DNA of 64,000 bases, from assembly GCF_004010195.1 (NCBI RefSeq), contig NC_057719.1, positions 28,126,710-28,190,709 on the forward strand, written 5' to 3'. Positions 16,340-59,664 of the stretch are shown here, in pieces; position 1 is the stretch's first letter, and each line of letters starts with the position of its first letter. The notes beneath the pieces are model-generated. The model saw only the letters and a list, made by a program, of their open reading frames with translations, had not been told where the DNA came from and did not search any database. Source of the stretch: Chiloscyllium plagiosum. Taxonomy: Eukaryota. A program made the position numbers and the translations under genes.

Positions 16340-19318
16340 AGCAAGTTAAATAGACTAGGCAGGCAAGAGCATGGCAGGGAACAAGGGAAGACTGATGAAT
16401 GAAACAGCATTTACTTCAATGCAAGAGGCCTGACAGGTAAGGTAGGTGAACTCAGGCCACGGAATGGGAACATGGAACTAGGATATTATAGCTATAACAG
16501 AAACATGGCTGGGTGAGGGACAGGGCTTGTAGTTCAATGTTCTGGGGTACAGATGCAATAGGAAGGACAGAAGGGGAGGCAAGCGAGGAGGTGAAGTGGC
16601 ATTTTTGATGAGGGAAAACATCACAGCAGTATTTAGAGAAGATATTCCTGAGGGACTGTCTTGAGGGAAGCTGTATGTGTGGAACTGAAAAATAAGAAGG
16701 GGTTGATCACTGATGGGATTGTATTATAGCCCCCCCCCCCTCAAATAGACAGTAGGAAATTGAGGAGCAAATATGTAGGGAGATCACAGATAACTGTAAG
16801 AATAGGACTGTTGCAGTAGTAGGGGATTTTAATTTTCCAAACATAGACTGGAAACACCATAGTGTTAAGGGCTCAGATGGGGAGGAATTTGTTAAGTCTA
16901 TTCAGGTAAACTTTCTTAATCAATATGTAGATGGCCCTACTAAAGAAGGGGCAAAACTTGACCTCCTCTTCAGAAATAAAGCAGGGCAAGTGACTGAGAC
17001 ATTAGTGAGGGAGCATCTTTGGGACTAGGGACCATAATTCTATTAGTTTTAAAGTAGTTATGGAAAAGGATAGGTCCGGTCCACAAGTTAAAGTTCTAAA
17101 TTGTGGCAAGGCCAATTTTGATGGTTTTAACAGGACCATTCAAATATTGATTGGGGGAGGCTGTTTGCTGGTAAAAAGGGACATCTGGTAAGTGGGAGGC
17201 TTTCAAAAGCGAGATAACGAGAGTTCAGGGCCAGTATGTTTGTGTTAGTGAGAAGTGCAGGGCTGGCAGAAGTAGGAATGTAGGCTGACCAGAGATATTG
17301 AGGCACTAGTCAAGAAAAAGGAGAATGCATATGTCAGGTATAGGCAGCTGGAATTAAGTGAGTGCCTTGAGAAGTATAGGAGGTGTCGGAGTACACTCAA
17401 GAGGGAAATCAGGACAAAAATGCACATGAGATAGTCTTGGCAGATAGATAATGTAAAAGACATACCACAAGTATATTAAGGGCAAAAGAGCAACTAGGGA
17501 GAGAATAGGACCCCTTAAAGATCAATGAGATCATTTACATGTGGAACCGCAGGTGATGGGTGAGATCTTAAATGAATATTTCTCGTCAGTATTTACTGTG
17601 GGAAGGACATTGAAGTTAGGGAATTCAGGGAAATAAACAATGATGTCTTGAAAATTAGTCCACATTAGAGAAGAGGTGGTGCATAAAGGTAGATGAATGC
17701 ATAAAGGTAGATGAATCCCAGGTCCGGATCAAGTGTATCCCAGGACATTGTTGGAAGCTAGGGAAGAAATTGTGGGTTCCCTCGTAGAGATATTTGCAAT
17801 ATTGATAGCCATGAGTGAGGTGCCAGAAGACTTAAGGGTGGCTAATGTGATGCCATTATTGAAGAAAGGCTGTAAGGAAAGACTAGGGAACTATAGGCCG
17901 GTGAGCCTAATGTCAATGCTGACTAAGTTCTTGGAGGGGATTCTGAGAGACAGGATCGATATGCATTTGGAAAGACATGACTCACAAATTTGATTAAGTT
18001 TTTGAAAATGTGATAAAGAAGATAGATACATGGACTTTAGCAAGATCTTCAAAAGGTTCCACATGATAGACTGGTTAATAACATTAGACCACATGGAATC
18101 CAAGGAGAGCTAGCCAATTGGATATAAAATTGGCTTGATGGTAGGAGACAGAGCGTGGTGGTAGAGAAGTTGGTGTTCAGACTGGAGGCCTGTGACCAAC
18201 AGCGTGCCACAAGAATTGGTACTAGGTCCACTGTTGTTCATCAGTTATATACATTATTTGGATGACAAAGTAGGAGGCATGGTTGGTATTTTACAGATGA
18301 CTCCAAAATTGGTGATATAGTAAATAGTGAAGAAGGTTATTTAAGAGCACAATGGGATGAATTGGGCCAAGGAATGGGAGATGGAGTTTAATGCATATAA
18401 ATGCCAGGTCTTGCATTTTGAAAAGACAAACCAGGACAGGTCTGACATGGTTAATGTTGGAGCCCTGGGGAGTGTTGACAAACAGAGACACCTAAGGGTG
18501 TAAGAAGGGGTGCACCTAGGGATACATGAGCCCTTCCTGAAGAAGGGCTCATGCCCGAAACGTCGATTCTCCTGCTCCTTGGATGCTGCCTGACCTGCTG
18601 CACTTTTCCAGCAACACATTTTGAACTCTGATCTCCAGCATCTGCAGTCCTCACTTTCTCCTAGGGGTGTAAGTGCACAGTTCCTTGAAAATAGCTTTAC
18701 AGGTAGACATGGTGGTGAAGGAGGCATTTGGCACGCTTTCCTCATGGGGCAGAACATTGAGCACAGGAGTTGGGATGTCATATTACAGCTATACAAGACA
18801 TTGGTCAGGCCTCATCTGGAGTACTGCATACAATTCTGGACAACCCTGTAGAGGAAGGATGTTATTAAACTGGAAAGGGTGCACAAAATATCTAGACTAT
18901 CTATCAAGACTAGAAGGTTTGAGTGAAAAGGAGGCTACTTAGGCAGAATTTTTTTCTCCATGGAGTATACAATGTTGAGAGATTTATAAAGTCACATAGG
19001 CACAGATAAAGTGAATAGCCAAGGTCTTTACCCCAGGGCAGGGGAATCAAAAACTAGAGGGTATAAGTTTAAGGTGAGCAGGGAAAGATTTAAATAGGAC
19101 CTGAGGGACAAACGTTTTACTCAGGGTGGTGCCAGAGGAAGTGGTGGAGATGGATACAATTACAACATTTAAAAGACATTCAGACAGATACACGAAAAAG
19201 GAAAGTTGAGAGGGATAGGGACCAGACACAGGCAAATGGGACTGGATCAGTTTAGGAAACCTAGTCGGTATGGACGAGTTGGATGGAATGACCTGTTTCC
19301 GTGCTGTAGGACTCTATC
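16340..19318 (+). mobile_element. Long degenerate CR1 LINE ORF2 (APE endonuclease + RT + 3' UTR)
   Basis: YFNARGL, DIIAITETWL, VVGDFNFPNIDW, ANVMPLLKKG..GNYRPVSL, LYKTLVRPHLEYC. Many stops and deletions. Interrupted at ~18505-18661. Confidence 0.93.
18525..18661 (+). mobile_element. Hammerhead-bearing short element, family A, inserted in CR1
   Basis: CTGAAGA-aGGGC-tcat-GCCC-GAAA-CG-TC at 18537-18564, then the family A body ending CTCACTTTCTCC. Flanks cctaagggtgtaag / cctaggggtgtaag. Confidence 0.8.
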
Positions 19319-19358
19319 ATATGTATTGTTCATCTATACTTGCCTTTGAGCTGAATGA

Positions 19359-19580
19359 GGAGAAAGTGAGGTCTGCAGATGCTGGAGATCAAAGTTGAAA
19401 CTTTATTGCTGGAACAGCACAGCAGGTCAGGCAGCATCCAGGGAACAGGAGATTCGACGTTTCGGGCACAGGCCCTTCTTCAGGAATGAAGAAGGGCCTG
19501 TGCCCGAAACGTCGAATCTCCTGTTCCCTGGATGCTGCCTGACCTGCTGTGCTGTTCCAGCAATAAAGTTTCAACTTTGA
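19359..19580. mobile_element. Palindromic hammerhead-bearing element, family A (Penelope-like pLTR derivative)
   Basis: Perfect inverted arms 19389-19482 and 19487-19580 (94 bp each, ggaa spacer). Direct repeat ctttgagctgaatga at 19344-19358 and 19575-19589. Confidence 0.9.
19452..19487 (-). ncRNA. Minimal type I hammerhead ribozyme motif
   Basis: Minus strand AUUC-CUGAAGA-a-GGGC-cugu-GCCC-GAAA-CG-UC-GAAU: 4-bp stem I, intact core, 4-bp stem II, palindromic ACGU mini stem III, GUC cleavage triplet. Confidence 0.8.
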
Positions 19581-20329
19581 GCTGAATGACTTGATAAGAC
19601 ATTTCAGAGGGCAGTCAGAGTCAACCACATGGCCCTGGGCCTGGAGTAGCATGTAGGCCAAACCATGTAAGGAGGCTGATTTCCTTCCCAAAAGCATAAC
19701 AGTGAACCAGTGGGTTATATAGCAACTGATAATTGTTTCCTCATCACCATTAACAAGATGAGCTTTCATTGCCATATTTTAGTTATTGGATTTGAATTCT
19801 ACCAATTACCATGGTGGGATTTGAACACTTATCTCTAAGAGTGTTTAGCCTAAATCTCTGGTTTATTCACTGAGAGATGTAATATACCACTGTCTCCCCA
19901 AATCCTGACGATGAATTTGAAGAAGTATACAGCTGCCTATGAGCATTGCAAGTGATCAGTGTCTTTAAATCCCCATTTAACACTGGTAAACTCTCATTTC
20001 TATACCGAACCTGCAGCCACACATATGCAGAAGTAAAAACTCACAAAGTGATGTTGAGCTGTTTGTAAAGTTCTGCAGACCACAACCACAGGAAGCATCA
20101 TGTGACTAGCTTAAACAAAGAGTTGAAATGATCATCACTCTCTCAAAAAGCAAGCGCATGAAAACCGTGCCCCATCTGAACCATCTATCAAAGCTAGATT
20201 CAAAACAAAAGTGAGGACTGTGGATGAAGGATTCCGCTTGTATATGCAGCCTCAGTGGTATCAGTATAATGTGAGCACACATAACCCACAAGGCATCCTC
20301 AGTTATACTTGGAATATCTTCATATGCAT

Positions 20330-20830
20330 TTGGTATGACAGTGATTGCAATCTTCAGTGTTACAACCAATCGCTGTCTGGATCAAACACCCAACTTCACA
20401 TTCCTGCCAATGCAAGCTGAAGAAACATTAAGTCATCTTCCACTTTACAGCCTTCTGGACTCAATTATTTTGGACCATAAATTCTATTCTCCATTTTAAT
20501 CTCTTTCGACCAAGAGCCATATGCATTTTTATTCACGTATTTACTTTCAGACAGAATTGGCCTTTTTGTGTTATTTTGGACCAATAACAGTACTATTCCA
20601 GTTGCTTTTTACACCTTGACATCTTTGGTATTCAATTTCCTTCTAACCTAGTTCTGACTTTCCCTTTTGTTCTACCTGACCTTTCCCTCTTATTCAATAG
20701 CATCACCTTTCTACCTCTCTTCAATTCCATAAATGATTCACATTGGACTCAAAATGGTAACTGTTTCTCTTCCCACAAAAACTGCTACACCTGCTGGTTT
20801 TATTTCAGATCGCCATTCTCTGCAGTACTG
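20330..20830 (+). mobile_element. Highly decayed Penelope-like element 3' end
   Basis: Residual TLQPSGLN coding motif near 20445, and a tail resembling the family C elements at 39118 and 39690. Confidence 0.45.
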
Positions 20831-23004
20831 TACATCCACATGTTTTCATGTACTTGGGGCAGCAAGTCCAATGGAAAAAGTGAGGAGATCTACTTATAAT
20901 AAATACAAGGAAGGAAGGCTGCTTTCTCATGTAGGTTATCTGTCCTATACCAATGTGCTCTGAAACCATTAGAAATATTGTTCAATTTACATTTTGATAC
21001 GCATCATTCTTAAGTTGACTTCCAATTATTTTCAACTTATGTCCCTTCTATTGTTGTTAGATCTTGCATTGAATTAGTGCTCCACATCAAATCTTTCTTG
21101 TCTACCTTTATGAGGTTTCATCTCAGCAATATCCTTTGGCAACCCAATTTTTCCAGTCTTCCCTCATAGTTCAATCCATGGACATTGGAAATAAATATAC
21201 TGTATTAGTTTGATTCAGATGGAGGCACTCTCACCCCTAATCAAAACACTGCATTTTTAAGAACGACTACATACAATCTAGGGATACTCTTTAGTGCAGT
21301 GCTGAATAAGGATGGTCTTGATGGAGTTGACATTCCTTCATCTCATTTTCAAGGAAAGCATACTACAAGAGGGAGAGCTGAGGCCAACATGAAATTAATA
21401 TGAACAGTGTTAGCTGTTGAGAGGTTATCTGTGGAAAGGCAACATTCAAATTTTATGTTGCCTCATTGCCAAGACAAATATTAACCATTAGACACCTTTA
21501 ACAATGATTGTCCCTGTTTTGATCAATTCAAACAAGCTTTTGCAATAGGACATGGAATAGACGTCAGGTGACTCATTTACATATAAAATAAAGTTGCCGT
21601 AGTCCCAGGAGATGATAGGGTTTTTCTCTCTGATTAAAAAGAGATAATTGATGGTGGTTTAAACTTGAGGGTTACACACCTCAGGGCAAGGGGAGAGGTT
21701 GGGAAGGAGGGAACTTCATGGTTAATGCAGTTACATATACCAGGATTCTAACCCCTGCCTTAGGCTGTTGTCTCCAAAGTAGCCTCTCCAGTCATAGCAG
21801 AGCTCATGATGTAAGTGCAGCTACACCACATGAGGAATGTTGTGCCTGACATTGACTTGTTTTGCCCCATTTTCATCAAAATGACCAATTCTTACCTCTC
21901 TGTCTTTTGGAGGACATAGGTTTTGAATAAATTTGTTGAGGCCTAGGAAACCCTGGCCTGGCTGCATTTATTGTCCATAACTAGTTGCCTCATTTCTCTC
22001 AAACTGCTGAATGATTAAGTTCTGGGTTCAGAATGATGCTTTGCGGAGGAAATTTCAAGATATTGGTCCATGAATGAAGGTGGAATGGCAATGATGATGC
22101 ACGTCCACAACAGAAACATGTGCAGCTTGGAGGCAAGTTGGAGATGGTACAACATTGATTGCTCCTGCCAGTGGCAGGGGTTACAAAGGAGTGAAGGTCT
22201 GGTGACATTATCTTCACAAGTCACACACTCTGTCAGCATAATGTGACTGTGACATGAATGTGCTTCATTCTGGAAAGACTTAAGTTTTTACAAATGTTGC
22301 TGTAGCTGCATCCATCCATACAAAGAGTGAATATTCCGTCATATTCTTGGTGTGACACTGCACTTGGCAGAGAATCTTGGTGCTGTCAGAAGCTCAGTCA
22401 CTTATTGTAGAGTACCTAACCTCTGCCTTGGCCTTGCAGCACAGTGGTTTGTCCAGTCCATGCAAATCTGCTTTTCTCTCAGGCAAGTTTCTGGTCAGTG
22501 GTGATCCCCAAGACATTTATGTTGGGGGACTTGAAAAGACGGGTGTTATTGAAGATTGGAAATTTTGTTTATGCTATCTTTCATTTGAGTTGGCTATTGC
22601 CAAGAATCACTGTACTGTAAATGAGCGTAATCAGTAATCCAGTTCATTCATCCATGTAAGTGAAAAGAAAACTCACCAAGACCTGTGTTTGCAACCTGAC
22701 AAAGAAAAATAGCAATATGCCCCCAGTCAGACACAGACTATGAAAACAGAAACAATAATTCCTTTCCAATTTTACCAAGGAGGGGTCCTTGGCGCAGCAG
22801 GTAGCACTCTTGCTCTGGGTTCAAGTCCCATTCTGGGACTTGATAGTTATGAAGAATGTGTTCACAATGTGTCAAAAAGGAGGATTATCACCCTGGAAAT
22901 TCTTTCAAAATGTCTATGGCAGGTATAAGAGTCTCCAAGTCAGATATGTTTGATGTGGAATGGTGCCCCTAAAGTGACAGACTAATGGCCTGTTCAGAGA
23001 AGGC

Positions 23005-23440
23005 TTACTAGACTGATCACAGGTTTGGTGGGATTATCTACTTAGGACAGCGTTTGTAGATTGTAGTTTTGAATAATCAAAGATGACCTTATTGGAACAC
23101 CCAAGAATCTCAGAGGATTTGACAGGGTAGATGCAGGAAGGATTTTCTTCTTTTGGGAGAGTCCAGCACCCAACAGCATCATGTTGGAGCAAGAGGTTAC
23201 CCATTGAGGACTGAGATGAGGAAGCATTCGTCTCTCAGGGCGTGATGAATCTCTTGAATTCTTTACCACTGGGTCTTTAAGGATATTCAATGCTGAGATA
23301 GACAATTTTTTTAAATCAGTAGGGAATGGGGAAAAGGCAGGAAAGTGGAATTGAGGGTTATCAGATCAGCCATGATCTCACTGAATGACAGAGTAGACTC
23401 AATGGGCTGAATGGCCTACTTCTGCTCCTAAGTCTTATAG
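23005..23440 (+). mobile_element. CR1-type LINE 3' fragment (second subfamily)
   Basis: Degenerate DLI..KNLRGFDRVD, and tail gatcagccatgatctc..gggctgaatggcctacttctgctcct. Confidence 0.75.
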
Positions 23441-24164
23441 TCCGTTCCAGGAAGAATGAGCCATAGGAACAGACAACAACATGCGCTTATCTGCCTCAAG
23501 TGAAAGATCCAAGTGCATCTGTCCTATAGCAACTGCATTCTAACAACATATGTAGGAACCAAACACCACAAAGGTACATAAAGGTCACATTTGACTTGCA
23601 TTTTGGATGACTTGACATTCTACAGAAGTTCATGCTGGTAGGATTTTTACATATCTTTGTGATGTCAAACGGAGAAGCAAAATCAGACTCATTACTGTAG
23701 AAATCCAATCTGGAGTACCAAAGTACTGAAAACATTAACTCAATTCAAGTACACAGATACACGTACCCTCCTCTCTGCAAACATTGCTGTGTAATCCCAA
23801 TGCTTTTAGGGAATTTATTACCATTGGTGTAAAAATATGCATTCTTATTGAAATTGCATGATGATATGGATATGCTTCTATTTACTCATTAATGTATGGA
23901 AACCTATCTACTATGTCCAGCACACAGCAGTTTGCAAATACAGATGTGGCAAAGTTGCATAATGATGCAAAATAACAGAGCAATCCAGTAATATGCAGAT
24001 GCACCACTTTTACAGAGAAACAGCCAATGGCAGATGTATTATATTTGCAAGGCAATACCACAATGCATTTGCAAATAGAGCACAACAAGTGCTTCAGTTT
24101 TTAAATCTTAAATATTCTCACTGATGAAAGTCTTTCAGTAATAACAGGAAAAGATACAGTAGAT

Positions 24165-27914: not shown

Positions 27915-28545
27915 AGGTGTTTAAAAAGGTGTTTGGGAGCTTGCCTTCGTTGCTCAGTTGTTTGAGTATAGGAGTGGGGACATTATGCTGCTGTTGTACA
28001 AAAGACAACTTGGTGAGGCCTCTTCTGGAACACTGTGTCCAGTTCTGATCACTCAGTCCTAGGAAGGACATTATCAAGCTGAAGAGGGTTCAGAAGAGAT
28101 TTACCAGGATGTTGCCGGTATGGAAGGTTTGAGTTATAAAGAAAGGCTAGATAGGCTGGGACTTTTGTCACCGGAGCACGGAGGTTGAGAGGTGACCAGT
28201 TAGAAGTTTATAAAATAGTCAGAGTTGAAGATAGTTGTCTTTTCTCTAAGATGGGAAATTTCAAGACTAGGGGGCACATTTTTAAGTTGAGAGAGAAAGA
28301 GATTTTAAAAAGACAAAAGGCAATTTTTTTTTACACAAAGTGGTTTACATGTGGAATGAACTTCCTGAGGAAGTGGTCGATGTGGGTACAATTACAACAT
28401 TTAAAAGACATTGGAACACATACATGAATAGGATATGTGGACGGATACGGGCCAGGGGCAGGCTGGTGGGACGAGTTTAGTTTGGGATTATATTCGGTAC
28501 GGACTGGTTGGACTGAAGGATCGGTTTCTGTGCTGTATGACTCTG
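27915..28545 (+). mobile_element. CR1/HER1-type LINE 3' fragment
   Basis: LVRPLLEHCVQF, RVQKRFTRMLPG, RGDQLEVYKI, 3' UTR ending gtatgactct. Confidence 0.9.
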
Positions 28546-28641: not shown

Positions 28642-29260
28642 GGTGGGTTTGTGGGCCACCATGATGCCAAGGGGTCTGAGTAGTCCTACCAACCAACACC
28701 CACCAACACACTGAAACAGCAGCTAATGAACTTGAAAGACCCTATACAGATAATGAGCAAAACTAATGTCATTTACAAAATACCGTGCAAGGACTGTAAC
28801 AAACACTACATTGGACAAACAAGCAGAAAACTAGCCACCAGGATACATGAACACCAAGTAGCCACAAAAACACATGACCCTCTCTCACTAGTATCCTCAC
28901 GTATGGGTGAGGAAGGACGTCACTTCAACTGGGACAACACATCATTCCTAGGACAAGCCAAACAAAGACACGCACGAGAATTTCTAGAAGCATGGCATTC
29001 TATCAACAAACGCATTGAGTTAGACCCCATCTACCACCCCCTAAAAAAGGAACATGAAGTGACTTTGCCACAGGAAATGACATCAAAGAAATCCAAACAT
29101 ATAAATAGAGAGCAGGAATTTTCAGCACTGCTTCGCCTGAGGCCCACTGAAGATGTTACCTAGTAGGGTAATGAAACATGTGGAAATGAACCTTCCAGCT
29201 CAGCGAGCAAACCTACATCCAAAACCTCAACCTGAGCTACAAATCTTCTCAAAACTCACT
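28642..29260 (+). mobile_element. Penelope-like element 3' fragment: GIY-YIG endonuclease, pLTR with hammerhead-like motif, inverted 5' tip
   Basis: ORF 28726..29163 NVIYKIPCKDCNKHYIGQTSRKLATRIHEH...REFLEAWHS. CTGAAGA-tGTTACC-tagta-gGGTAAT-GAAAC at ~29147-29177. Confidence 0.9.
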
Positions 29261-29944
29261 AAGCTAATGAGATATTTTACTTTATTTTTCAAAAGAAAAT
29301 GTCTGGAATATTTTAAAGTAAATCTTTGTTGGCTTTTTCACTCTGCCATCTGATATAAGCCTGAAGGCTTTGCTGCTACATGATTAATTGCTGCTACACC
29401 ATCATCCATTATCACAGGGGGTGCCTTCCATTCCCATTGATAGCTACAAGTGTTTACATGCCTTGTGAACTGGAACTATGAATGAGTTCCAATGCTTGTT
29501 GTTATAAGGGTCTGTGCATTTGAATTGCAAGGTTTTATTCAGTTGAGGGGATGTAAATGTGTTTACAAACGTGAGATTTTTATTTGCAATGTAAATTCTA
29601 CCATAAACAATTTTGTTTTGGAGAGTTTTGCTTTGCCTCAATTCTGCTTGTGTTTTGAAATCTGCCTAGTGTAGATACTGGCAGGTATTTACAGGTAGGG
29701 AAATGGCAAAGGTTGTGAGGGCAATGAGTTGGCAACCAAGCTGGAATTGGGACTTTGAAGGGGGTTTGGGTTGAGCAGCATAAGTTGGCAGGGGTGGGGG
29801 TAATGGAATGAATGGAGCATGCAGATGGGTCTTGTTTCGTTTTTTGTTCTTTAAATTTCAACAGTGTCAGTGCACCAATTCAGGACTTTCTGCACAGCTC
29901 ATCTCAATACCTGACAGCCTCAGCTCTCATTACTGGTCAACTCA

Positions 29945-35075: not shown

Positions 35076-35151
35076 GCCTGGCCTGCTGTATTTTTCCAGC
35101 ACCACATTTTTCAACTCTGGTACTCCAGCATCTGCAGTCCTCACTTTCTCC
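35076..35151 (+). mobile_element. Family A element 3' fragment (no ribozyme core)
   Basis: cctgctgt..ttttccagcaccaca...ccagcatctgcagtcctcactttctcc. Confidence 0.8.
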
Positions 35152-36675: not shown

Positions 36676-36885
36676 GGAGAAAGTAAGGACTGCAGATGCT
36701 GGAGATCAGAGTTGAGAGTGTGGTGCTAGAAAAACACAACATGTTAGGCAGCATCCGAGGAGCAGGAGAACTGACGTTTCGGTTTCAGGAATGATTCCTG
36801 ATGAAGGGCTTTTGCCCAAAATGTCGATTCTCCTGCTCCTCAGATGCTGCCTGACCTGCTGTGCTTTTCCAGCACCACACTCTTG
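36676..36885. mobile_element. Palindromic family A element, older copy
   Basis: Imperfect inverted arms around ggaatgattcc. Core CTGATGA-GGGC-tttt-GCCC-AAAA (GAAA decayed). Flanks tgatggtttgaagca / tgacggattgaaaca (12 of 15 match). Confidence 0.85.
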
Positions 36886-37833
36886 ACGGATTGAAACATG
36901 TTGGAAACTCAGAGCTGTTCGCGTGCTCCCTTAGCGCTCACTCATTTAGGACTGAGCTGCATCCATGCACTGCTTGGCTGTACCTGTTAGCAGGTAGCTG
37001 CTTTAGCCAGAACTAAAGGCCAACATTAGTTCCATGGGGGCGGGGAGGAGGGGGCTAGTCGTCAGTCAGGTGACCAGGCAGAGCACAGTGCTAGTAGTGT
37101 CCACTGGGAGCTGTGCTCACCATTACCTCTTGTTAAATACAATGTCCACGGTAGGCAGGGTCAGTGTCACTTATATGGACTAAAGCACACAGAATCTATG
37201 TCTGTTGCCTATTAGAACATTGAAGGAGCTGATACATGAAGCATGGGTTTGCAAGCTGCAGCTACGTTTCATTTGCAAATGTCCCTTCACATGTATGTAA
37301 AGCATGCCGAGTGAACATGCTGATATGGGAAATGCTGGTCGGGGTGGATTGCACCAGGCTTTTGGTGCTTGCAAAGCTAACATTGTTCATCTCAGTGATG
37401 TAGAAGTTAGCAGTTAGCAGCAAAAATGGCCCATCACTTGGGGAACTTCCAAGATTGATAAGGCACAAGGGGAACATCACTCCATCCTATTTTGTACAGA
37501 TAGGACGATGGACTCGAATGAATGCAATGCAAAGTGGAATGCTTGTGATGGGTCTGCAATGGGAAGAGGGTCAGAGGCCAGCAGACATTCCCTTTTGGAT
37601 GCAATGTGCTGATCACTCAGCTGGTGCAACCCCTTCACCACATTGGTGCACATGCTGTGACCAGGACCACGGTGGAGCAGAGGATACACCTAGGCAGCTT
37701 GGAGCAGTCTGGTGGGCCCACTAAAATAGTCCGGGCAGAGTGTGCTGCACCATCCTGGTGTACTGTTTTCTGTGTACAAGTGGAGCAGGCAATGAGATGA
37801 TGCAAGAGATGCTGAGGGTTTGAGGGAAGAGAG

Positions 37834-37926
37834 CTGAAAAATGTGTTGCTGGAAAAGCACAGCAGGTCAGGCAGCATCCAAGGAGCAGGAGAATCGACGT
37901 TTCGGGCATAAGCCCTTCTTCGGGAA
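37834..37926 (-). mobile_element. Single-arm family A element with 13-bp TSD
   Basis: TSD tgagggaagagag at 37821-37833 and 37927-37939. Core reads CCGAAGA (U to C)-GGGC-ttat-GCCC-GAAACGTC. Confidence 0.87.
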
Positions 37927-39088: not shown

Positions 39089-39117
39089 TTTCACTTCACA
39101 TCAATTAACACAGCTGA

Positions 39118-39262
39118 GAATGCTGGAGAAACTCAGTATCCACAAAGAGAGACTTAAACCATTAACTCAATTTCTCTCACCACAGATACTGCCAGACCTG
39201 CTGAGTTTCCTCAGTATTCCCTGTGTTTGTTTCATGTTTCCAGCCTCTGTACTATTTTGCCT
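39118..39262. mobile_element. Decayed palindromic element, family C
   Basis: gaatgctggagaaactcag ... ctgagtttcctcagtattc inverted arms, related to 39690-39785. Confidence 0.55.
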
Positions 39263-39689: not shown

Positions 39690-39786
39690 CAGACAATGCT
39701 GGAGAAACTCAGCAAGTCTGGCAGCATCCATGGAGAGAGAAACAATTGTTAATGTTTTGAGTCCAGTATGACTCTTCTTTGGAACT
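39690..39786 (-). mobile_element. Family C element with decayed hammerhead core
   Basis: Minus strand GTT-CCAAAGA-aGAGTC-atactg-GACTC-AAAA-CA-TT-AAC: stems I and II retained, core mutated. Confidence 0.55.
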
Positions 39787-40206
39787 GATGAAAGTACTGT
39801 TGTCCTCAGCGAACCTGATCTCAGGGAGGAACAAATTCAACCCAGTGTAGGATGTGAAAGCTTGCTCAGCACTGAGGGAGCTCTGTTGATAAGCGCACAT
39901 ACAGAGAGGTCAGGTAAAATAGTGATGCTCCAGTACACAAATGCAGAATTTTCCCTCTGGGGACACAAGAAGAGTCTGGTTCAGTTGTTGAATTCACCCC
40001 CAGCAAGGGTGTGGGTGGAAGGAGAGACAATCAATCATTCACCAGTAATTTGCCACTGGGCAGCCTAGAAACAGATTCACCATCCCGTGAAGGGTGGCAC
40101 ATGCGTTCTTAAAGTTTCAAGACCAATCAAAAACATGGCATTTTGTCACAAGCTGGCAGGTTGCAATGAAAGGCAAAAAATAAAGCGTGCGCCTTGGGAT
40201 GGAGGC

Positions 40207-40725: not shown

Positions 40726-40950
40726 TGGTATGGAGATGCTGGTGTTGGACTGGGGTGTACGAAGTTAAAAATCACACAGCATCAGGTTATAGTCCAACAG
40801 GTTTAAATTGGAAAGCACTAGCTTTTGGAGCGACGCTCCTTCATCAGGTGATCAGGTCTCTCACCTGATGAAGGAGCGTCGCTCCGAAAGCTAGTGTGCT
40901 TCCAATTAAACCTGTTGGACTATAACCTGGTGTTGTGTGATTTTTAACTT
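40726..40950. mobile_element. Palindromic hammerhead-bearing element, family B, with 16-bp TSD, inside a decayed CR1 3' end
   Basis: TSD taactttcaaaagata at 40710-40725 and 40945-40960. Inverted arms of ~90 bp around tcaggtctc. Confidence 0.9.
40862..40896 (+). ncRNA. Minimal type I hammerhead ribozyme motif
   Basis: CAC-CUGAUGA-a-GGAGC-guc-GCUCC-GAAA-GC-UA-GUG: intact core, 5-bp stem II, palindromic AGCU mini stem III. Confidence 0.78.
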
Positions 40951-42360: not shown

Positions 42361-43950
42361 TAATGGAGGCTTCAATTTAACATTTTTTTCCACAATTGGC
42401 ACCTCTGATAGTACAGAACTCCCTGAACACTGCAATAGACAGAGTGTGAGCCAAGAATAATTGCTCAAATAGTTGAAATGGGACCTCCACCACTGACAGA
42501 AATATGGCTATCTACAGAGTCAAATCTGACATGTGAAGTTATACTCCTTCTTTACCCTACTTCATGCCAACAGGTCAGCAGAACGAATCTTCAGCAGTGG
42601 ATCTTATAAAATATTACAGACAGAAATGACTCTGTGCCTGAGGATTTTTATAATTCACATAAAATTTCTTTCTATTATGGTGTACAGAATATGAAAGGCT
42701 AGTTAAAGAAAAATGTTGAGTTTTAACCATATTGTGTATCATGATCATAAAACAAAACTTTCAGGCCATAGACTTTGTTAATGTTTCCCAACAAGTTTTT
42801 TTAAAGACATCCCTTGGGAAGGGATGTATTTCAATTGGTATTTTAAAAGGGTCTTGATAAGATGTTGCAGCAGGAGTATGTCAGTGCCCTGAAGCAAGCG
42901 ACTCAAAGGTGCTGTTTGTGAGACAATGAGGGGATGATTACATTGGTCACGTGCTTTGCAATCAGTCCCTTCTGAGCGTGTGGTCAGTGCATGCAGCAAA
43001 TGTGCTATTTATTTTCTTAAAGTGGTTTTGATAGGAAATTGAAGCTTAAGCATTTTTACAGGAGGGTAGAACAAAATGTCGAGTGCAAAGCAAGCAACAC
43101 ATTTCAATTTGCACTCTCCACACCCAGTGCACATAGAATCCATTGCATACCAGTGCAAGAATACCTGGCCAGAAATCAAGTGGGTGGTGTTTATCTAAGC
43201 TTTAGTTAATCGCACTTTAAACATGGTCTTATTTGGTTAAACAAATCCATTGGGAGCAGAGACTTTAATGTTTCTAGTTGGCTAACTACAGCATCACTTT
43301 CAAACTTTATTCTCTCTAGAAACTTTTGCAGGCTCTTCCAAAAGTTTAACTGTGAAAAATATAAATAGATCAGAATGAACTAGCTTCAAGCCCTGGCCTC
43401 AGTGAAGTTGGCTGACCTGCTCAATGCCTGAACTCTACACTCAGTATACTTAGCTAGGGAGCAGAATTTCACAAAGTTAACCAGAATTCTTAGCTCTGAC
43501 GACTCTTCAATAGCACTTGAGGAAAAAAAATCTGTACATTTGGACTGGCAAATGATTGACCTAAGAAGTGGTAGGCCCCGACCTTAATCAAATTATCCAC
43601 TGTCAGTTCCTCTGTGGCCTGAAGTCTGAAGTCACTAATTTTAGGAAAAGTCAAAAGAGTAAAATCAGGGGAGAAAAATGGTTTTCCAATCCACAGATCA
43701 GGTTCAGAAATGTTTGCCTGGGTGGGATGAAGATTCATGATATTCTTATTACTATCTGGAAACTTGGGACCAAAGTGGACTTAAAAGTTAAGACCTATAT
43801 TGTGTGGGATAAGAAAAAAAAACTAATTTTTGGTTCATTCCTGAGTTCTGCGAATGGTGCAGGGGTGCCTGAAATTTTGTTTACAAGCACTGAAACTGAG
43901 GATTTTAAAACCTTTCAGGTGATTGACTCACTCTAACAAGTAAGAGGAGT

Positions 43951-44150
43951 TAAAAATCTCACAACACCAGGTTATAGTCCAACAAGTTTAATTGGAAGCA
44001 CATTGGCTTTCAGAGCGACGCTCCTTCATCAGGTGAAGGAACAGCGCTCCGAAAGCTAGTGTGCTTCCAATTAAACCTGTTGGACTATAACCTGGTGTTC
44101 TGTGATTTTCAACTTTGTATGCCCCAGTCCAACACCAGCATCTCCAAATC
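43951..44150. mobile_element. Palindromic family B element
   Basis: Inverted arms meeting at tcatcagg/tgaagga. Flanking aagaggagt at 43942-43950 and 44158-44166. Cores mutated or truncated. Confidence 0.87.
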
Positions 44151-44723
44151 AATTAAGAAGAGGAGTGAGAGAGAAATCAAATCAGACGGTTGCATAGCAA
44201 CAAAGTGTATAATGACGCAGGGAGACATAAGTCAGTTCTTTTAGAAAGTCAGATCCATGTAAATACCAGGGAGTGGGAACATTTCTTCCTTCATTTCAGG
44301 GCAGTGCACAAGTGTCCTTCAGAGAAAAAGGCCTGTACTAGAAGCAGTGTTGTTTAGCAGTCTTCAGAGCAGTCAGTGCAGGAGAAAAAAGTCCCAAGAA
44401 GCTCCAGAAAAGGAAGTCTGTTGAAGAGGGGTTGCAAGGACTTATGTGAAGGAATAAACAAACGGATAATATAGCTCACTTAAGGGTCTTATGAAGAATT
44501 ATTAACTAAAAAAGAAAACTCATGTTGAGTGTCTGCAGGTATTTGCTAGAAATAAAGGAAATATAGCCATGGTAACTAAAAATGGAATTTTAAAGTGGTT
44601 GCAGGATGTCCTTCCATTGAGGTTTCAGTATCTATCATTTGCTGTTGAGGGTAAAAAGGCTTAAATATTTATTTTTGATAAGATCATTTCAACTACTTTT
44701 ATAGTGTAAAAGTGGTAAGTATT

Positions 44724-52100: not shown

Positions 52101-52114
52101 TACCAGAAAATGTA

Positions 52115-52331: not shown

Positions 52332-52448
52332 TCTGTACAGCTGTTGCAATGTACACATTCATTTCTTAAATATTCGCCATTGCCTTCTAACCTTTCATGA
52401 ACATATCACCCTCATTCTTTTACAGTTTCTGTTAGACTAGATTCTAGG

Positions 52449-53171
52449 AGATTAGATTAGATTCCCCTACAGTGTGGAAACAAGCCCTTCGGTGCAAAAA
52501 GTCCACACCGACCCTCCGAAGAGTGACATTATAGAGGTTTATTAAATCACGAGGGGCATGGATAGGATAAACAGACAAGGTCTTTTCCCTGGGGTGGGGG
52601 AGTCCAGAACTAGAGGGCATAGGTTTAGAGTGAGAGGGGAAAGATATAAAAGAGACCTAAGGGGCAACTTTTTCACGCAGAGGGTGGTACGTGTATGGAA
52701 TGGCTGCCAGAGGAAGTGGTGGAGGCTGGTACAATTGCAACATTTAAAAGGCATCTGGATATGAGTAGGAAGGGTTTGGAGGGATGGGGCCAAGTGTTGG
52801 CAAGTGGGACTAGATTGGGTTGGGATATCTGGTTGGCATGGATGAGTTGGACCAAAGGGTCTGTTTCCATGCTGTACATCTCTGTGACTCTGAGTAACTC
52901 ACCCAGACACATTTCCCTCTGACTAATGCATCTAACACTATGGGCAATTTAGTATAGCCTATTCATCTGACCTGCACATCTTTGGATTGTGGGAGGAAAC
53001 CAGAGCACCCGGAGGAAACCCACACAGACACGGGGACAATGTGCAAACCTACACAGTCGCCTGAGGCTGGCATCGTACCTGGGTCCCTAGCATTGTGAGG
53101 CAGCAGAGCTAACCACTGAGCCAAGTGCTACCACTGAGCCAAGTGCTGCCCTTGAGCCACCGTGCCGCCCC
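52449..53171 (-). mobile_element. V-SINE interrupted by a plus-strand CR1 3' fragment (52525-52891)
   Basis: SINE tail ...accctccgaagagt | CR1 | gagtaactcacccagac... resumes. gagt is duplicated at 52521-52524 and 52892-52895. Confidence 0.9.
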
Positions 53172-53602
53172 TTATTTAGATTTAGCACCCTTGTATTGAA
53201 TTAGACTACTTCACTTTCCATTCCAAAGAATAATGTTATTGTCACTCTTCTCTCAGGGACCATATAGATCAGGATTATTAATCAAACCTTCTCATTGTGT
53301 ACTTGAAAATGCTTTCCACTCTTAGGGGCAGGGCAAGGAAGCAGGGCTCCAAATCTACCTCAACTGGAACAGGAACAGAATCTACATGTTGCTGTTATAT
53401 TGAACCACATACAAGCCTTCCAGCCAAATGAGCTAACCAGCCTCCTTATCTGAAGTGTAAAAACTAAACATATGGCCTATCAAGTTAGGTTCAATCTGGG
53501 ATCTGTCTTTTCATACATTACCATCAGTTGGGATCGTAACATATATGATTAGAGTCAGAAGGTTTCAGGGCCAAAACACATTTTCAATACTTCAGCACAT
53601 TA

Positions 53603-53922
53603 GTGGCATGGTGGCTCTATTGTTAGCACTGCTACCTCACAGTGCTAGGGACTCTGGTTTGATTCCAGCCTCGGCGACTGTCTGTGTGGAGTTTGCACAT
53701 TCTCCCAGTGTGTGTGGGGGTTTCCTCTGGGAGCTCCGGTTTCCTTCCACAATCCAAAGATGTGCAGCTTAGGTGAATTGACCATGCTAAAGTGTTTGGT
53801 GATGTGTAGGTTAGGTGCATTGATCAGGGGAAATGTCCAGTAATAGAGTAGGGGAATGGGTCTGGGTGAGTTACTCTTTGGAGGGTCGGTGTGGACTTGT
53901 TGGGCCAAATGGGATTCTATGA
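53603..53922 (+). mobile_element. tRNA-derived V-SINE (HE1-like)
   Basis: Homologous to the other copies. Confidence 0.88.
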
Positions 53923-54257
53923 TTGTGTAGTGAGAGTAGGATGGTGGATGAGTGGTGCCTGGTCAAGCTTTTAAGTGAAACAAATTATGGCATAAGAATA
54001 TAAGGAATTACAGCACAGATAGGTCATTTAGACTCTCGACACCCTTGTGAATCCAAAATCTGGCCAACTCATTTCATAGATTTGCAGTGATCTAGTGTCC
54101 ACTACTAACATGGGAAGAAAACTGCAAAAACAAAATGACCCTCTTCAAATTTCATGCATTCAACTTCATATTAATTGGGGTTTTTGAAACAGTGACCCTG
54201 ACATCTAGATTCCTCACGCACAGAAGCATTGTGTCAGCATTTAGCCTGTCAAGCCGC

Positions 54258-54960
54258 TTCCAATGGAGAACACGGCCCATCTACGTCAATGGAGCTGAGG
54301 TTGAAAGATTCAACAGCACCAAGTTCCTAGGACTGACAATAACCAACAATCTGTCCTGGACCTCCCACATGGACGCCACGGTCAAGAAGGCACACCAATG
54401 CCTCTTTTTCCTCAGGCAGCTTAAGAAATTCAGCATATTCATCAGGACCCTCACCAACCTTTACAGATGCACAACAGAAAGCATTCTATCAGAGTACATA
54501 ATGGCTTAGTCTGGCAACTGTTCTGCCTCGGACCATAAGAAACTACAGAAAGTTGTGTGCACAGCCCAGACCATCATGGAAGCCAACCTCCTATCCATGG
54601 ACTCCATTTGCATGTCTCATTGCTACGGAAAAGCTGCCAACATCATCAAAGACCACTGCAATCCTTGTAATGCTTTCTCCCAACTTCTTCCAATAGGCGG
54701 AAGAGACAGAAGCTTGAACACACGCACCAACAGGTTAAAGAACAGCTTCTTCCCTGCTGTCATCAGACTGCTGAACAGACCTCTCTAATTTCAAATAATG
54801 TTGATCTTGCTTTGGGTACTTCTTCTTCAGTCGTAACCTTGTATGCCTCGGTATAAGCACCCCATGATCATTATGTTGTTGTTTACTATGATCTGCCTGT
54901 ACTGCTTGCAAAACAAAATGTTTCACTGCACTTAGATACATGTGACAACAATAATAAAAA
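54258..54960 (+). mobile_element. Rex1/Babar-like LINE 3' fragment
   Basis: ORFs 54135..54509 (KFLGLTITNNLSW..VKKAHQCLFFLRQLKKF) and 54555..54788 (RTNRLKNSFFPAVIRLLN). Confidence 0.85.
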
Positions 54961-56902
54961 TTCTTATATTTCAATATAATCACCACTCATTTGTCATTAT
55001 ACATGTATTACATATATAGTGGTGCAGTGTAGTGTCTGCATCTCTGAGCCAGATGGTTCAAGTCCCACCCACTCCAGAGGCATGTCTGACAAGGTTGATT
55101 AGAAAATATCAACAGGCAAGGGTTTGTCTGAAGTTCTAGTAACATTAGGTGGCATTGTTCCCAATTTGGAACTCTGGTGTCTATCCAGGAGACTAACACA
55201 CCTTGAAGGAGGTCAATATTTCATTACAAGGCACAATTTTAAGGACAGTATTCCTTTGCATTCAAGAATTATCCCACGGAGCCCAGAACTATGTAAAATG
55301 TAAACACAAGTGGAAATATTCAGCAGCTCTGGCAACATCTGTGGTGAGAGAAAAACATAGTCAACTTTTGGAATCTCAGAAATTTTAAAAAAGTCATATT
55401 CAACTCAAAACATTATATTTTTCTTGACAGCCATACTGCTGGTCTCGACTCAGTTAGCTCACTTGGCTGGACAGTTTGTTTGCAATACAGAGTTATGCAG
55501 ACAATGCCCAAGTTGGTTTCCCAACCTCACCCTCAGCTGGGGCATGGTGACCCTCTACTTAACCCATCAGCAGTCTTTTCCAAAGAGACAGCAGGACTAT
55601 GGTGACTTCCCTGCTGTGTATTTTCATCACTTGTGTTTTTATTACAGATTTCCAGCAGTCACAGTATTTTGATTTTTTTGCAGGATTAGGGAGCACAAGA
55701 TGTTGATATTTCGAGAATCAACTATGAGCCAGCTAGGCTCAATGTGCTTGTTGATGGTTGCTGCTGGGTCTTTCCAGAATCAGGGACCTTCCAAAGAAGT
55801 AATGGAGCAGAACGACCAACTAATAAAAAAAACATTCTGGACATTACACAAATAAAACAGCTGACCAAAATGCCTGTGAAAATCTCATGTCCCTCTGTAA
55901 CCTGCTTTACCAACTGAGATCAGCAAAATTCCTTCAGAACTTCAACAAATGTTTTGACAGCTAAAGGAAGTGGCTACAAGTCTGCTCTTTTAGGAAGGAA
56001 ATTCCAGTCTATAACAGAGATAGAAAGGTTGAGGTGTCATGTGTATTACTAGCCGGAGTCCTTAAAGGTAAAATCTCTTCAAGGCAAAGATATAAATTCA
56101 ACATAAATCTGGATGGTGGCTGTGTGAATATAACTGTCGTCAATGGGGAGCTATTTGACATCCTTTGTCTGGTGTTAATTGACCAATAATACCCCCAAAT
56201 AAGTCCAGTGGCTGGATTTTTTTAAGGATTAGGAAATCATTATTGTTGAAGAATTCTAGTTAAACATGGCAAAAATCACAAAGGCTATCATGAGGAACAC
56301 TTCTACTTGAGAATTTTCCAGCCAGCATTGCTAGAAAAGATTTCTCTCAGAGATCAAACGATTCTCATGGCTTGGTCTCTATTTCCTGTATTAAAATAGA
56401 AGGAGGACTAGATAGTGTGCATTACTTTTCAGTACAGATCAAGGACTACCCTCTTCAAACCATTGTTTTAGACCATAGAGACTCTGTAATATGAAAGAGG
56501 CCATTTGGCCCATTATGCCTATGCCTGCTGTTTGTTGGAGCAATCCCTCTATTTTGTTCTCTGCACAATCCTGTGTCCTCCTTCGTTTCAAGCAGCTACT
56601 AATTTTTCCCTTTAAAATAATGCAACAGTCTCATCACTCCTTATTTGGGATGGTACAACATTCCATATTCCAAAGGTATGCTGCAAAATTTCTAACACAT
56701 TTCCTCATTCTCTATAACACTTTTAAGTTGATGACTTCTCATCACTAACCCTTCCCCAAGTACTGTACCGCCAAATCAGGTATCTTTCCTGTTTACCTCT
56801 GCCAAAAGTATTTAACCTCTAATTTTCCTGTTCCAGTGCAAGTATTCTCAGTATCCTAACTGAACTTTGCCATCCCTGGGGTAGTCCTCGTGTGATCTCT
56901 TT

Positions 56903-57112
56903 GGAGAAAGTGAGGACTGCAGATGCTGGCGATCAGAGTCGAGAGTGTAGTGCTGGAAAAGCACAGCAGGTCAGGCAACATCCGAGGTGCAGGCGAATTG
57001 ACCCTTCAGGCATAAGCCCATCAGGATTCCTGATGAAGGGCTTATGCTCAAAGCGTCGATTTTCCTGCTCCTCGGATGCTGCCTGACCTGCTGTGCTTTT
57101 CCAGCACTACAC
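56903..57112. mobile_element. Palindromic family A element, decayed cores
   Basis: GGAGAAAGTGAGGACTGCAGATGCTGG start, inverted arms around catcaggattcctgatg, cgtgtgat repeated in both flanks. Confidence 0.85.
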
Positions 57113-57199
57113 CCACGTGTGATTCATATGCGTTTTCTAAGTTGAGATACTCAACAAAGCATACAGTATGTTAACTGTAACCAAAATAATGTACAATTA

Positions 57200-57735
57200 C
57201 CTCTTTGCTAGCTCTAGATGTAACTATTCAATATGCTCTTCACTAGTCTCCCATCACTCTCCACAAATTCAAGGTTCTGGTGCCCATTGACTTAAGCTGC
57301 AACAAGTCCAGTTAACCTTTTTCATTGTGCTGGGTAACCTATAATGGCTCCTGGTTGAGCATAGCTTGGTTTTAACAGTTATTTCTATGTTTATAAGTCC
57401 CTCCACGGTCTCAACTCTTCCTCTGTAATCTCCTTCAACCTCATGACCTTCCAGAGATTTATACGCTGCTATCATTCTGCCCCCTGGAATATTGCTGATT
57501 TTTATTGGGTGTGCATCAGCTGCTGGGTCAAACGCTTGGATTTCTCTCCCATACATCTGTGTCTCAAGCGGATGTTCTTCCTTTAAGCATTTCTTAAAAC
57601 TAACCTCTCTGTCTAAACTTTTCATCATACCGACCTACTATCCTCTTATAGGGTTCAGTGTCGTACACTGATTCACATTGTTTCTGTGATGTGCCTTGGC
57701 ATTTTTAATTATGGTAAACATGCTACAAAAATATA
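57200..57735 (+). mobile_element. Decayed L2-like LINE 3' fragment
   Basis: Pyrimidine-rich remnant with L2-like motifs, similar to 30900-31510. Confidence 0.45.
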
Positions 57736-58369
57736 TGTTGACAGTGATTCCTCTTATATTGAACATATCAATATGTTGTGGATGTTATCAATAAAAACAG
57801 TAGGCTTTGATGAAAGTTGTGCAGGAGCTTTGAAGTTTTTTTTAGAAAACACACACAGACAAACTAACACACACCACACCCCCGACGACCCCCTCCATCC
57901 CTCATTTTGACTCTAAATTCCCAAAAATATGATTTACTTATTCCACATGATACTTTTCCAGCCAAACGAACAATGAGGACTTTAAGATTTTATTGTATTA
58001 GCTCAACTAGTGGGATTTGACGTATTTCTTTAAAATTGATCTTGTAATTGCTTACAGAACTAACAAACTCAGGGCTACAATATTTCTAGATGGTACTGAT
58101 TTACTGAATTATTTACTAAATTTAAAAAAACACTTCTTTAAAAATGACAAATTAAATGGCTTCCAACTCAAAGCTATAAAACTTGCTGCAAATATTCTGC
58201 ACTAGCTGCCATTTTGTTTCAAAACAGGGCATATGGATTTCCACTGGCTTTTATTAATAGCACAAAATGAAAACCAAATGGCGAGGAATAGTTTGTTAAT
58301 TGGCTCGATCAGCAAATATAGTAGTGGTCTCAAACATCAGCATTGTTTTAGCAACAGGTTGGGTCTTAC

Positions 58370-58433
58370 CTTCAGAAGTCATCTCTTTCATATCTATCAG
58401 GATATAAAGCTTACCCTCTGGCTCCAAATCGAC
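58370..58433 (-). CDS. PRKCH: Novel PKC (eta-like) coding exon 2, end of C2 domain: VDLEPEGKLYILIDMKEMTSE(D)
   Basis: Manual translation matches the PKC eta/epsilon motif VDLEPEGK/R. Acceptor ttgttag|GTC, donor GAAG|gtaaga, 64 nt. The phase-1 end joins the exon at 12341 (G+AT=Asp). Not in the ORF track. Gene symbol is the best match, not proven orthology. Confidence 0.9.
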
Positions 58434-58766
58434 CTAACAAAAGAGCATGAGGAGAGATTAAAATATAAACTAATACAAGTAATATGTCATACACTCATAT
58501 GTAAAGAAACATAATGAAGCCTAACCAAGATGAATTCTCATACCAAAGCCTTAAATTGATGCATCCATAGAAGTTTTATGACACAGAAGATTGCCATTCT
58601 GAGCAACCTAAATCTAAACCCAGTGTCTATTTTCTCTATACTAGCACATTTCTTTTGATGTTAATGTTTACTTTTGTTTCTCTATATTATTAGAATTACA
58701 AAGGTTTATAAATGGCTAAGTACTAGAATTGTACCTTTTGACTTATACAAATACTACATTTTTGAT

Positions 58767-58985
58767 GTTAAAAATCACACAACACCAGGTTATAGTCCAA
58801 CAGGTTTAATTGGAAGCACACTAGCTTTCGGAGCGACGCTCCTTCATCAGGTGATTGTGGAGGGCTCGATAGTAACACAGAATTTATAGCAAAAATTTGC
58901 AGTGTGATGTAACTGAAATTATACATTGAAGAATTGATTGTCTGTTAAGCCTTTCATCTGTTAGAATACAGTGATAGTTTCACTT
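58767..58985 (-). mobile_element. Single-arm family B element with 9-bp TSD and extra 5' sequence
   Basis: TSD atttttgat at 58758-58766 and 58986-58994. Near-identical to the arms at 40760-40950. Confidence 0.87.
58819..58853 (-). ncRNA. Minimal type I hammerhead ribozyme motif, sense to the PKC pre-mRNA
   Basis: Minus strand CAC-CUGAUGA-a-GGAGC-guc-GCUCC-GAAA-GC-UA-GUG, identical to 40862-40896. Confidence 0.78.
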
Positions 58986-59145
58986 ATTTTTGATCCGTTA
59001 CATTAAATTTAGGGTAGATTAAGATGTCATGTGATCCATGCTGGATTCTGCCTGAATGCAATGGTTTATTGTTTAGAAGATTTAAGCAAGGATCATATTA
59101 GTTTATTGAATGAGTGGCACAAGGTGCTGTACTTTGCTTGGGGAC

Positions 59146-59385
59146 TGTAGTCATTGGAAGGTAGTCAGCCAGGTGGCTGTCTCAGAATACGAGTCAGCTA
59201 ACTCAGAATACAAGATTCACAGCCCCAATCAGGGAATCCTGGCTGATAGATATAAACATAAGTGTCAGAGGTTCTACTCACTCTAGAAACCAGCTCTGAG
59301 CTAGCTGGGTCAGTGTCATATATTGAGTATATGTAAATAAACGGTGACTTGATAATAGGATACCGGCCTTCATGGAGTTATTTCA
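59146..59385 (+). mobile_element. Solo LTR with perfect 5-bp TSD
   Basis: GGGAC|TGTAGT...ATTTCA|GGGAC. Reverse-complement homolog of the LTR at 6114-6346. AATAAA near 59336. Confidence 0.88.
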
Positions 59386-59555
59386 GGGACAATGACAGCA
59401 GTGTCTCAGTCCACAACTGATTAAGCCGTCCAATGTTCTAGAAGGATGTCATAGTTATTATTTTGTAAAACATTAGACAGTAAACTTTACTTAAGAAGAA
59501 AGGAAGTTGGGATCAAGGATAACTACTCGACATTTCTAATTTCTAATGTTTATAT

Positions 59556-59664
59556 CCCGAAATGTCGATTCTCCTGCTCCTTGGATGCTGCCTGACCTGC
59601 TGCGCTTTTCCAGCAACACATTTTTCAGCTCTGATCTCCAGCATCTGCAGTCCTCACTTTCTCC
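59556..59664 (+). mobile_element. 5'-truncated family A element
   Basis: Starts inside the core (cccgaaatgtc) and ends ctcactttctcc. catttctaatt is duplicated at 59531-59541 and 59665-59675, with a short filler. Confidence 0.85.

Follow-up and report, generated by a model that had tools for sequence, protein, structure and literature searches.

How a dozen short, non-coding sequences, several of them with hammerhead ribozyme motifs, came to be scattered through one stretch of shark DNA is the question raised by the window considered here, by which we mean the whole 64 kb analysed from contig NC_057719.1 of the 3.56-Gb genome of Chiloscyllium plagiosum. A preliminary description of the window had named 12 loci in three families (A, B and C) and had seen in them a separate, retrozyme-like system of elements reduced to the pseudo-long terminal repeat (pLTR). 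All 12 loci are present and fall into the three families as described. Sequence comparison indicates that all three families are pieces from the ends of protein-coding Penelope-like retroelements (PLEs), and not free-standing ribozyme elements. The element class is already known, and the value of the copies lies in what they say about mechanism: we consider it probable that the short copies are run-off complementary DNAs (cDNAs) of a capped 5' leader, with priming likely from the two nicked target strands.

Coding parents of the short copies

The arms of families A and B in the window are 98-99% identical to the ends of coding PLEs; each A or B subfamily of the window is the same sequence as a coding PLE end, which counts against a separate pLTR-only system. 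Labels of the type L093 denote genomic copies of the families that were compared with the window loci. The arm at 18537 is identical to coding-linked copy L093 at 85 of 86 positions, and that at 19483 to L240, in which an open GIY-YIG frame lies upstream, at 89 of 90; the copy at 58767, which reaches about 135 nt upstream and across a TATA-like box, agrees with coding-linked L143 at 214 of 219. Several of the first 30 family A loci continue upstream into a common sequence and the end of a GIY-YIG endonuclease, and copies found with the family A GIY-YIG peptide have an A arm about 230 bp downstream, with the strict hammerhead core in 12 of 30 loci. The parents of family A include L126, with a GIY-YIG domain above the Pfam cut-off, and L114, with a reverse transcriptase (RT) detected by tblastn. 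Ten long 'open frames' in A parents proved to be runs of N, so that an unbroken full-length A element was not seen. The arm of family B lies 3' of the endonuclease end in most of 42 loci, and copy L162 has a 480-aa frame running from RT to endonuclease with the arm downstream (Pfam RVT_1 E = 6.9e-6, below the cut-off). This frame has 107 longer relatives, with PF26215 listed in nearly all and PF00078 in most, and a 93% match to a Chiloscyllium punctatum protein over 20% of the length of that protein. Family C is an older relative of families A and B; a decayed RT and endonuclease persist in copy L289 and an endonuclease end in L305, L304 and L297. The window pieces of family C are only 74-80% like the genomic C copies, and their link to coding elements is therefore one of similarity.

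A cysteine linker, CX4CxxC, is found in the parents of both A (CHRRNCKTC) and B (CHGRRCKTC), and a CX2-5CxxC linker before GIY-YIG marks the Neptune clade in the classification set out in the cited parts of PMC8557442. Judged by this motif rather than by a tree, families A, B and C would belong to the Neptune group and a fourth family, D, to the Penelope/Poseidon group. Family D includes the GIY-YIG relic at 28726, which the preliminary description had offered as a trace of the mobilizing machinery. The relic is genuine (E = 0.0011 against Pfam GIY-YIG, short of the cut-off), and it belongs to an element with its own, different hammerhead end at 29147; family D also has its own tail. Neither the relic nor its family shows the Neptune-type linker. 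Lacking the CX4CxxC motif that the A and B parents have, and carrying an arm of its own, the relic does not stand as their mobilizer by descent.

The arm, from hammerhead to tail end, is about 125 nt long and lies at the 3' end of RT/GIY-YIG elements. Partial tandems with a pLTR hammerhead (L163, L165, L021, L176 and L213) place it at the other end as well. The B tail of L165 stops at the ATG that opens a frame matching the N-terminus of the full-length relative P0003, and in the family A tandems L021, L176 and L213 the first ATG lies about 40 nt past the tail; because the arm precedes the start of the open reading frame (ORF) in tandem copies, it is the 5' leader of the element too. The families thus have the hallmarks of endonuclease-bearing (EN+) PLEs: an RT before GIY-YIG, a hammerhead pLTR, partial tandems, an inverted 5' copy, and a tail with two 3' ends. 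The preliminary description had proposed PLE-type minimal hammerheads, inserted by PLE RT and GIY-YIG endonuclease with target-site duplications (TSDs) of variable length, instead of the terminal inverted repeats (TIRs) of a DNA transposon, and this part of it holds.

Several other features of the longer copies deserve record. The tail of L165 (G000:C27:9364200-9370700), L021, L176 and L213 enters the ORF start and then switches to downstream element sequence, and these tandems are possible records of template jumps. The family A tail ends of L021 and L176 have a pyrimidine tract followed by AG that lies about 40 nt ahead of the ATG and looks like a splice acceptor, with no clear donor seen. 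Long family B copies (L065, L134 and others) carry a variable CA-rich tract in the 3' untranslated region, after the stop codon and ahead of the promoter-like region. PLE-derived RT and endonuclease segments also occur in annotated gene models of turtle, shark and newt (P0005-P0009, P0057, P0091), among them zinc finger, PPP1R12A-like and V2R-like models, and may be annotation artefacts or cases of exonisation.

The hammerhead cores

The ends of families A, B and C fit the minimal type I hammerhead as judged from their letters, with a conserved core, an extra base before stem II and a palindromic stem III. As had been described, stem II differs between families and still pairs, and stem III is reduced to the palindrome ACGU or AGCU. 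Among 346 copies with a core and a stem II of at least 4 bp (loci that were picked in part by core patterns), stems I, II and III exchange between families while pairing holds; the 15.2-16.2 pair is kept in 306 of the 346 and the first pair of stem I in 312. A minimal-hammerhead descriptor matched 34 times in 864 kb (the window plus 80 stretches of 10 kb, hereafter the unbiased set) and never in the reversed sequence. Exact core matches number 75,212 for A, 14,739 for B and 237 for the strict C pattern in the whole genome; the control with reversed patterns gave 0. Retention within the window is patchier than first described: the core is intact at four of the 12 loci (18537+, 19483-, 40865+ and 58850-), and the CUGA half is absent at 35076 and 59556. 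The Rfam scan of the window (E<=5) gave 10 matches, none of them a hammerhead, with only hairpin-driven microRNA and small nucleolar RNA matches below the cut-off. Cofolding of two copies did not yield the catalytic dimer fold, and the arms folded no better than shuffled sequences (z = -0.53).

One tail per pair

We count arm positions from the C of the hammerhead CUGA (position 0), so that the cleavage site falls just before +28 in family A and +29 in family B. Arms mapped in the unbiased set with the core covered number 123 for A, 35 for B and 11 for D. Their 3' ends are bimodal in all three families, the two modes lying about 35 nt apart, a distance that corresponds to the known PLE tail. 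Many arms occur as head-to-head pairs, of which the unbiased set holds 42; one at the edge of a stretch was removed. Exactly one of the two arms is tailed in 39 of the remaining 41 (p = 8e-10 against 0.5), and in all 27 of those bounded by a TSD of at least 7 bp (control TSD rate, 6/300). A second set, drawn from 262 loci picked by motif searches and covering A, B and D, gave one tail in 84 of 92 pairs and in 67 of 68 TSD-bounded pairs after edge pairs and duplicates had been removed before counting; its single TSD-bounded exception lies on the D cut-off. Together, 94 of 95 TSD-bounded pairs obey the rule. The tail has been treated merely as optional at one inverted pLTR in the available sections of PMC3846280 and PMC8557442.

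The TSDs range from 7 to 17 bp, mostly 13-16. Among 51 clean pairs the arm that is longer at its 5' side is the tailed one in 18 and the tail-less one in 33. The loop of stem II is of the same variant in both arms of 27 of 27 pairs (0.23 expected), and 79 of 81 inverted junctions are distinct. Fillers templated by stem II and hairpin-like junctions are common, including those at window positions 18525 and 19359, and therefore snap-back does occur; snap-back alone cannot give the tail of one arm together with the longer 5' part of the other.

A fixed 5' start and an extra G

The 5' ends of the arms pile up at the upper edge of the hammerhead. The interval from +10 to -10 takes in the ends of 61 of the 123 A arms and 17 of the 35 B arms, a per-base rate of 0.043 and 0.039, respectively, against 0.013 or less in other bins. 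Genome-wide, 7,363 palindrome centres lie at the hammerhead 5' edge as against 188 at the cleavage site (counted with A1 and A2 anchors for the former and A1 only for the latter). The cleavage site was rejected as a source of 5' ends, since the interval from +25 to +31 contains those of 3 of the 123 A arms and 1 of the 35 B arms; a small excess at +28 may exist, and CG microhomology would give the same junction. Gaps in the reference as the cause of the pile-up were likewise rejected, upstream similarity having been found in just 1 of 81 re-tested arms, as was the end of an intron, since inspection of the short copies revealed no common upstream exon.

Long copies carry a box 34-40 nt above the hammerhead, TATAAA or CATAAA in B and C and, as a weaker form, TTTATC or CTTATC in A. 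They also carry initiator-like words, the A of which is at -4 (A, C) or at -8/-6 (B), and the pile-up lies about 30 nt below the TATA-like box. The labels TATA-like and initiator-like follow the usual promoter consensus. The base that precedes the start is informative. In hand counts of 100 listed A copies for each start, it is G57/A30/T13 before starts at -4 and G19/C39/T42 before starts at -3; a scripted count over the first 30 loci of each gave G22/A5/T3 and G4/C13/T13 (G versus T, Fisher p = 5e-5). After removal of bases judged by hand to come from the opposite arm, G:T stands at 32:9 for -4 and 14:34 for -3 (p = 6e-6). Copies L365 and L370 show a TSD, a single G and then ATTCC, and a G precedes ATTCC in 5 of 6 cases in subfamilies A3 and A4. 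In family B a preceding G is present in 5 of 6 copies that start at A(-8), in 4 of 8 that start at A(-6) and in none of the 14 with pyrimidine starts, which lie at -9, -7 and -4. Three public runs from three studies have their leading upstream loose end at -4, with a consensus that starts with the complement of G. An extra G is a recognized mark of capped, full-length L1 insertions, according to the consulted parts of PMC11702581.

A proposed mechanism

It is the fixed start point, the extra G and the pairing of one long with one short end that lead us to favour the run-off account. Transcription would begin at the initiator-like A (-4, or -8/-6), and, with a start at that A, the hammerhead would head the messenger RNA (mRNA). 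The endonuclease would cut the two target strands about 13-16 nt apart, and two RTs, plausibly a dimer on one RNA, would begin at two internal sites of the leader, one per strand. Priming in the 5' arm copy would then run off the cap, adding the extra G, after about 95 or 128 nt. Microhomology or end-joining would unite the two cDNA ends head to head, in many cases with a short fold-back filler. Were one side to abort, a solo arm would result; long copies would arise when priming took place in the 3' arm copy, or through a template jump. Self-cleavage would not be the maker of these elements, because the copied RNA would be mostly uncleaved, and the model predicts that short copies without the upstream box are dead.

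A wider proposal, which we put forward tentatively and at somewhat less than an even chance, is that PLEs integrate by obligatory asymmetric double priming, with an RT dimer beginning at two fixed sites of the capped leader, one for each target strand, that the resulting leader cDNA, akin to the strong-stop cDNA of retroviruses, must jump to the 3' repeat for a full element to form, and that the short copies are the scars of failed jumps. If it is true, about 100,000 short scars record the start site, the cap and both priming sites, and the way in which the pseudo-LTR is regenerated is explained.

A number of observations weigh against the run-off account or limit its reach. The one-tail rule is broken in 10 of 133 pairs defined by proximity, 9 of which have no TSD, and the second pair set, coming from motif searches, is non-random; the concordance of the loops could be explained by subfamilies active at different times. 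Outside the pile-up, 30 of 123 A arms end within the arm and 32 extend past -10, so that run-off accounts for about half of the arms. The 'TATA' of family A (TTTATC/CTTATC) is a weak match, and in family D, with few short copies, the box lies at -47, so that a start would be expected near -17, and none is seen there. As many as 24 of the 57 G in the hand-counted 100 copies may derive from the opposite arm. The short-read single-cell polyA run X19 (1,341 and 811 matching reads, on both strands) showed no pile-up of read beginnings or ends, and its loose ends mostly mirror genomic junctions; run X20 had 0 matching reads. Finally, Penelope of D. virilis starts about 120 nt above the hammerhead, with 46 nt followed by a 75-nt intron, as given in the parts of PMC2377424 available to us; the intron ends at helix I in the account excerpted from PMC4209133.

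The strongest competitor, which we regard as unlikely, holds that the short copies are randomly 5'-truncated PLEs, the inverted copy arising by fold-back of the cDNA or by self-priming on antisense RNA, the tail at one end by endonuclease resolution, and the pile-up by an RT pause or microhomology at the 5' edge of the hammerhead. It has precedent, such origins having been described for PLEs (PMC8557442, PMC3846280, as far as the cited passages go) and snap-back after full-length cDNA for R2 (PMC11371274, likewise), and it sits well with the stem-II-templated fillers, the hairpin-like junctions and the half of the arms that end away from the pile-up. A pause, however, does not predict that a G is added at purine starts lying 30 nt below a TATA-like box, and copying one arm from the other cannot make the tail-less arm the 5'-longer one (33 of 51), unless the centres were later deleted.

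We think it very improbable that these are independent, non-coding retrozyme-like families, transcribed, self-cleaved as dimers, circularised, and mobilized in trans by PLE proteins. The very high copy number of the short forms, the covariation of hammerhead stems between families, and the pLTR-related tandem non-LTR retrozymes reported in vertebrates, one chondrichthyan included (bioRxiv 10.64898/2026.07.22.740005, in the portion consulted), speak for them. Against them stand the near identity of the arms to coding-copy ends and the mere 3 of 123 A arms that begin at the cleavage site; moreover, re-copying of a palindrome would not preserve exactly one tail. Tandems in the unbiased set are confined to small partial ones, L176 and L213 among them. 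We have not filed the copies as retrozymes because the window holds no tandem array, because 79 of 81 junctions are distinct and because short copies lack the upstream box. That the five pairs of the window are inverted repeats of 200-220 bp could suggest miniature inverted-repeat (MITE-like) DNA transposons with TIRs that mimic a hammerhead, a reading we consider next to negligible given TSDs of 7-17 bp, unequal arms, variable centres and the same arm at the ends of RT/GIY-YIG elements.

The copies in the window

Each of the five head-to-head pairs in the window consists of one tailed and one tail-less arm. The A2 pair at 19359..19574 has a tailed left arm (-) with an intact hammerhead (19483), a tail-less right arm and a 15-bp TSD (19344-19358 / 19575-19589). 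Two A4 pairs have a tailed left arm and a tail-less right arm that begins with G+ATTCC, at the inferred start site in the pair at 36676..36886, which has a decayed core and no exact TSD; the other, at 56903..57115, has an 8-bp duplication. The family B pairs have opposite orders: that at 40726..40944 is tailed on the left and tail-less on the right, where the hammerhead is intact (40865, +), with a 16-bp TSD, and that at 43951..44150 is tail-less on the left and tailed on the right, with a 9-bp TSD (43942-43950 / 44158-44166).

The remaining copies of A and B are solo arms or fragments. An A1 arm at 18525..18661 (+) is tailed and has an intact minimal hammerhead (CUGA at 18537); it opens with 12 nt of fold-back filler that repeat stem II in inverted orientation, and its duplication is an offset 9-mer only. 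A tail-less A1 arm at 37834..37926 (-) begins just above the hammerhead, has a core mutated to CCGA and carries a 13-bp TSD, and a tailed A1 arm at 59556..59664 (+) begins inside stem II (+17), with an 11-bp duplication (59531-59541 / 59665-59675) and filler. The family A fragment at 35076..35151 (+) runs from +51 to the tail end and has neither hammerhead nor convincing TSD. The tail-less B copy at 58767..58985 (-) retains an intact hammerhead (58850, -) and a 9-bp TSD. TSDs had been claimed for most loci; seven of the 12 proved to have an exact duplication, 8-16 bp long, that lies at or close to the two ends, and nothing convincing was found at 35076, 36676, 39118 and 39690.

Family C is represented by a decayed fragment at 39118..39260 (+), with approximate ends and a short inverted piece at its start, and by a decayed arm at 39690..39800 (-) with a GAGTC/GACTC stem II and a mutated core, which is 75-80% like the C copies of the genome. 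More decayed arm pieces like those of family C lie at 20721-20800, 55311-55353 and 55604-55665. The family D element, at 28698..29262 (+), is a 5'-truncated PLE end of Poseidon/Penelope type with the GIY-YIG relic and a tail, a TATA-like box at 29100 and a decayed hammerhead at 29147. Outside families A-D, a lone hammerhead-like string, CUGACGA...GAAAC, occurs at 4671 (-) and fails the stricter descriptor. Other abundant dispersed repeats lie at 3606-3803, 7041-7299, 19012-19329, 28364-28495 and 52568-52897, with inverted relatives, and we take these to be, probably, LINE (long interspersed element) 3' ends and SINEs (short interspersed elements) of shark type.

Comparison with known systems

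The way in which tandem and inverted PLE insertions are built, and the role of the hammerhead, are stated as open in the consulted parts of PMC8557442, PMC2377424 and PMC11167929, and the shark genome supplies tens of thousands of natural products from which sharp predictions follow: a capped start at -4 or -8, one RT site per strand, and an uncleaved template. A literature search at title and abstract level, with subscription papers mostly outside it, found no earlier description of the one-tail rule, of run-off copies or of these shark families. The comparisons that follow refer to the portions of each source that were available.

EN+ PLEs (Craig et al. 2021, PMC8557442; Arkhipova et al. 2013, PMC3846280) share with the shark families an RT followed by a C-terminal GIY-YIG, a hammerhead pLTR, partial tandems, an adjoining inverted copy, TSDs of variable length, and a tail of 30-40 nt that is often at one end only. 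Their short pieces are described as 5'-truncated with an optional tail, whereas here there is a sharp 5' site with a G, and one tail in 94 of 95 pairs. The minimal hammerheads of metazoan PLEs (Cervera and de la Pena 2014, PMC4209133) are alike in their CUGAnGA, the extra base before stem II, G10.1-C11.1, the palindromic 15.2-16.2 and a short stem I; solo motifs and opposite-strand pairs are reported there as widespread and are attributed to truncated PLEs. In the shark copies the arm starts do not pile up at the cleavage site. The non-LTR retrozymes of Li, Clavereau and Pollet (bioRxiv 10.64898/2026.07.22.740005) have the type I hammerhead, the kinship to pLTRs and the non-coding nature in common with the shark copies, but they are tandem, with a hammerhead in each unit, while the shark copies are solo or head to head and match coding PLE ends. 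This calls for caution, as short hammerhead repeats of vertebrates can be mislabelled as retrozymes or MITEs.

L1 twin priming (PMC11702581) is similar in that both target ends are primed, with TSDs of 12-18 bp and an extra G at full-length 5' junctions; the two cDNAs of L1 come from adjacent parts of the RNA, whereas those proposed here would come from the same overlapping stretch, begun at two fixed sites. The Anolis Poseidon PAc, studied in vitro (Frangieh et al. 2024, PMC11167929), acts on the two strands alike, cutting and extending each, uses uncleaved RNA and is predicted to be a dimer. Its tail is defined by two internal RT start sites, and its arm, like that of the shark families, overlaps the region of the ORF start. 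The sections of that paper available to us report no difference between strands in the start sites in bulk and do not describe run-off insertions or the pairing of one site with each strand.

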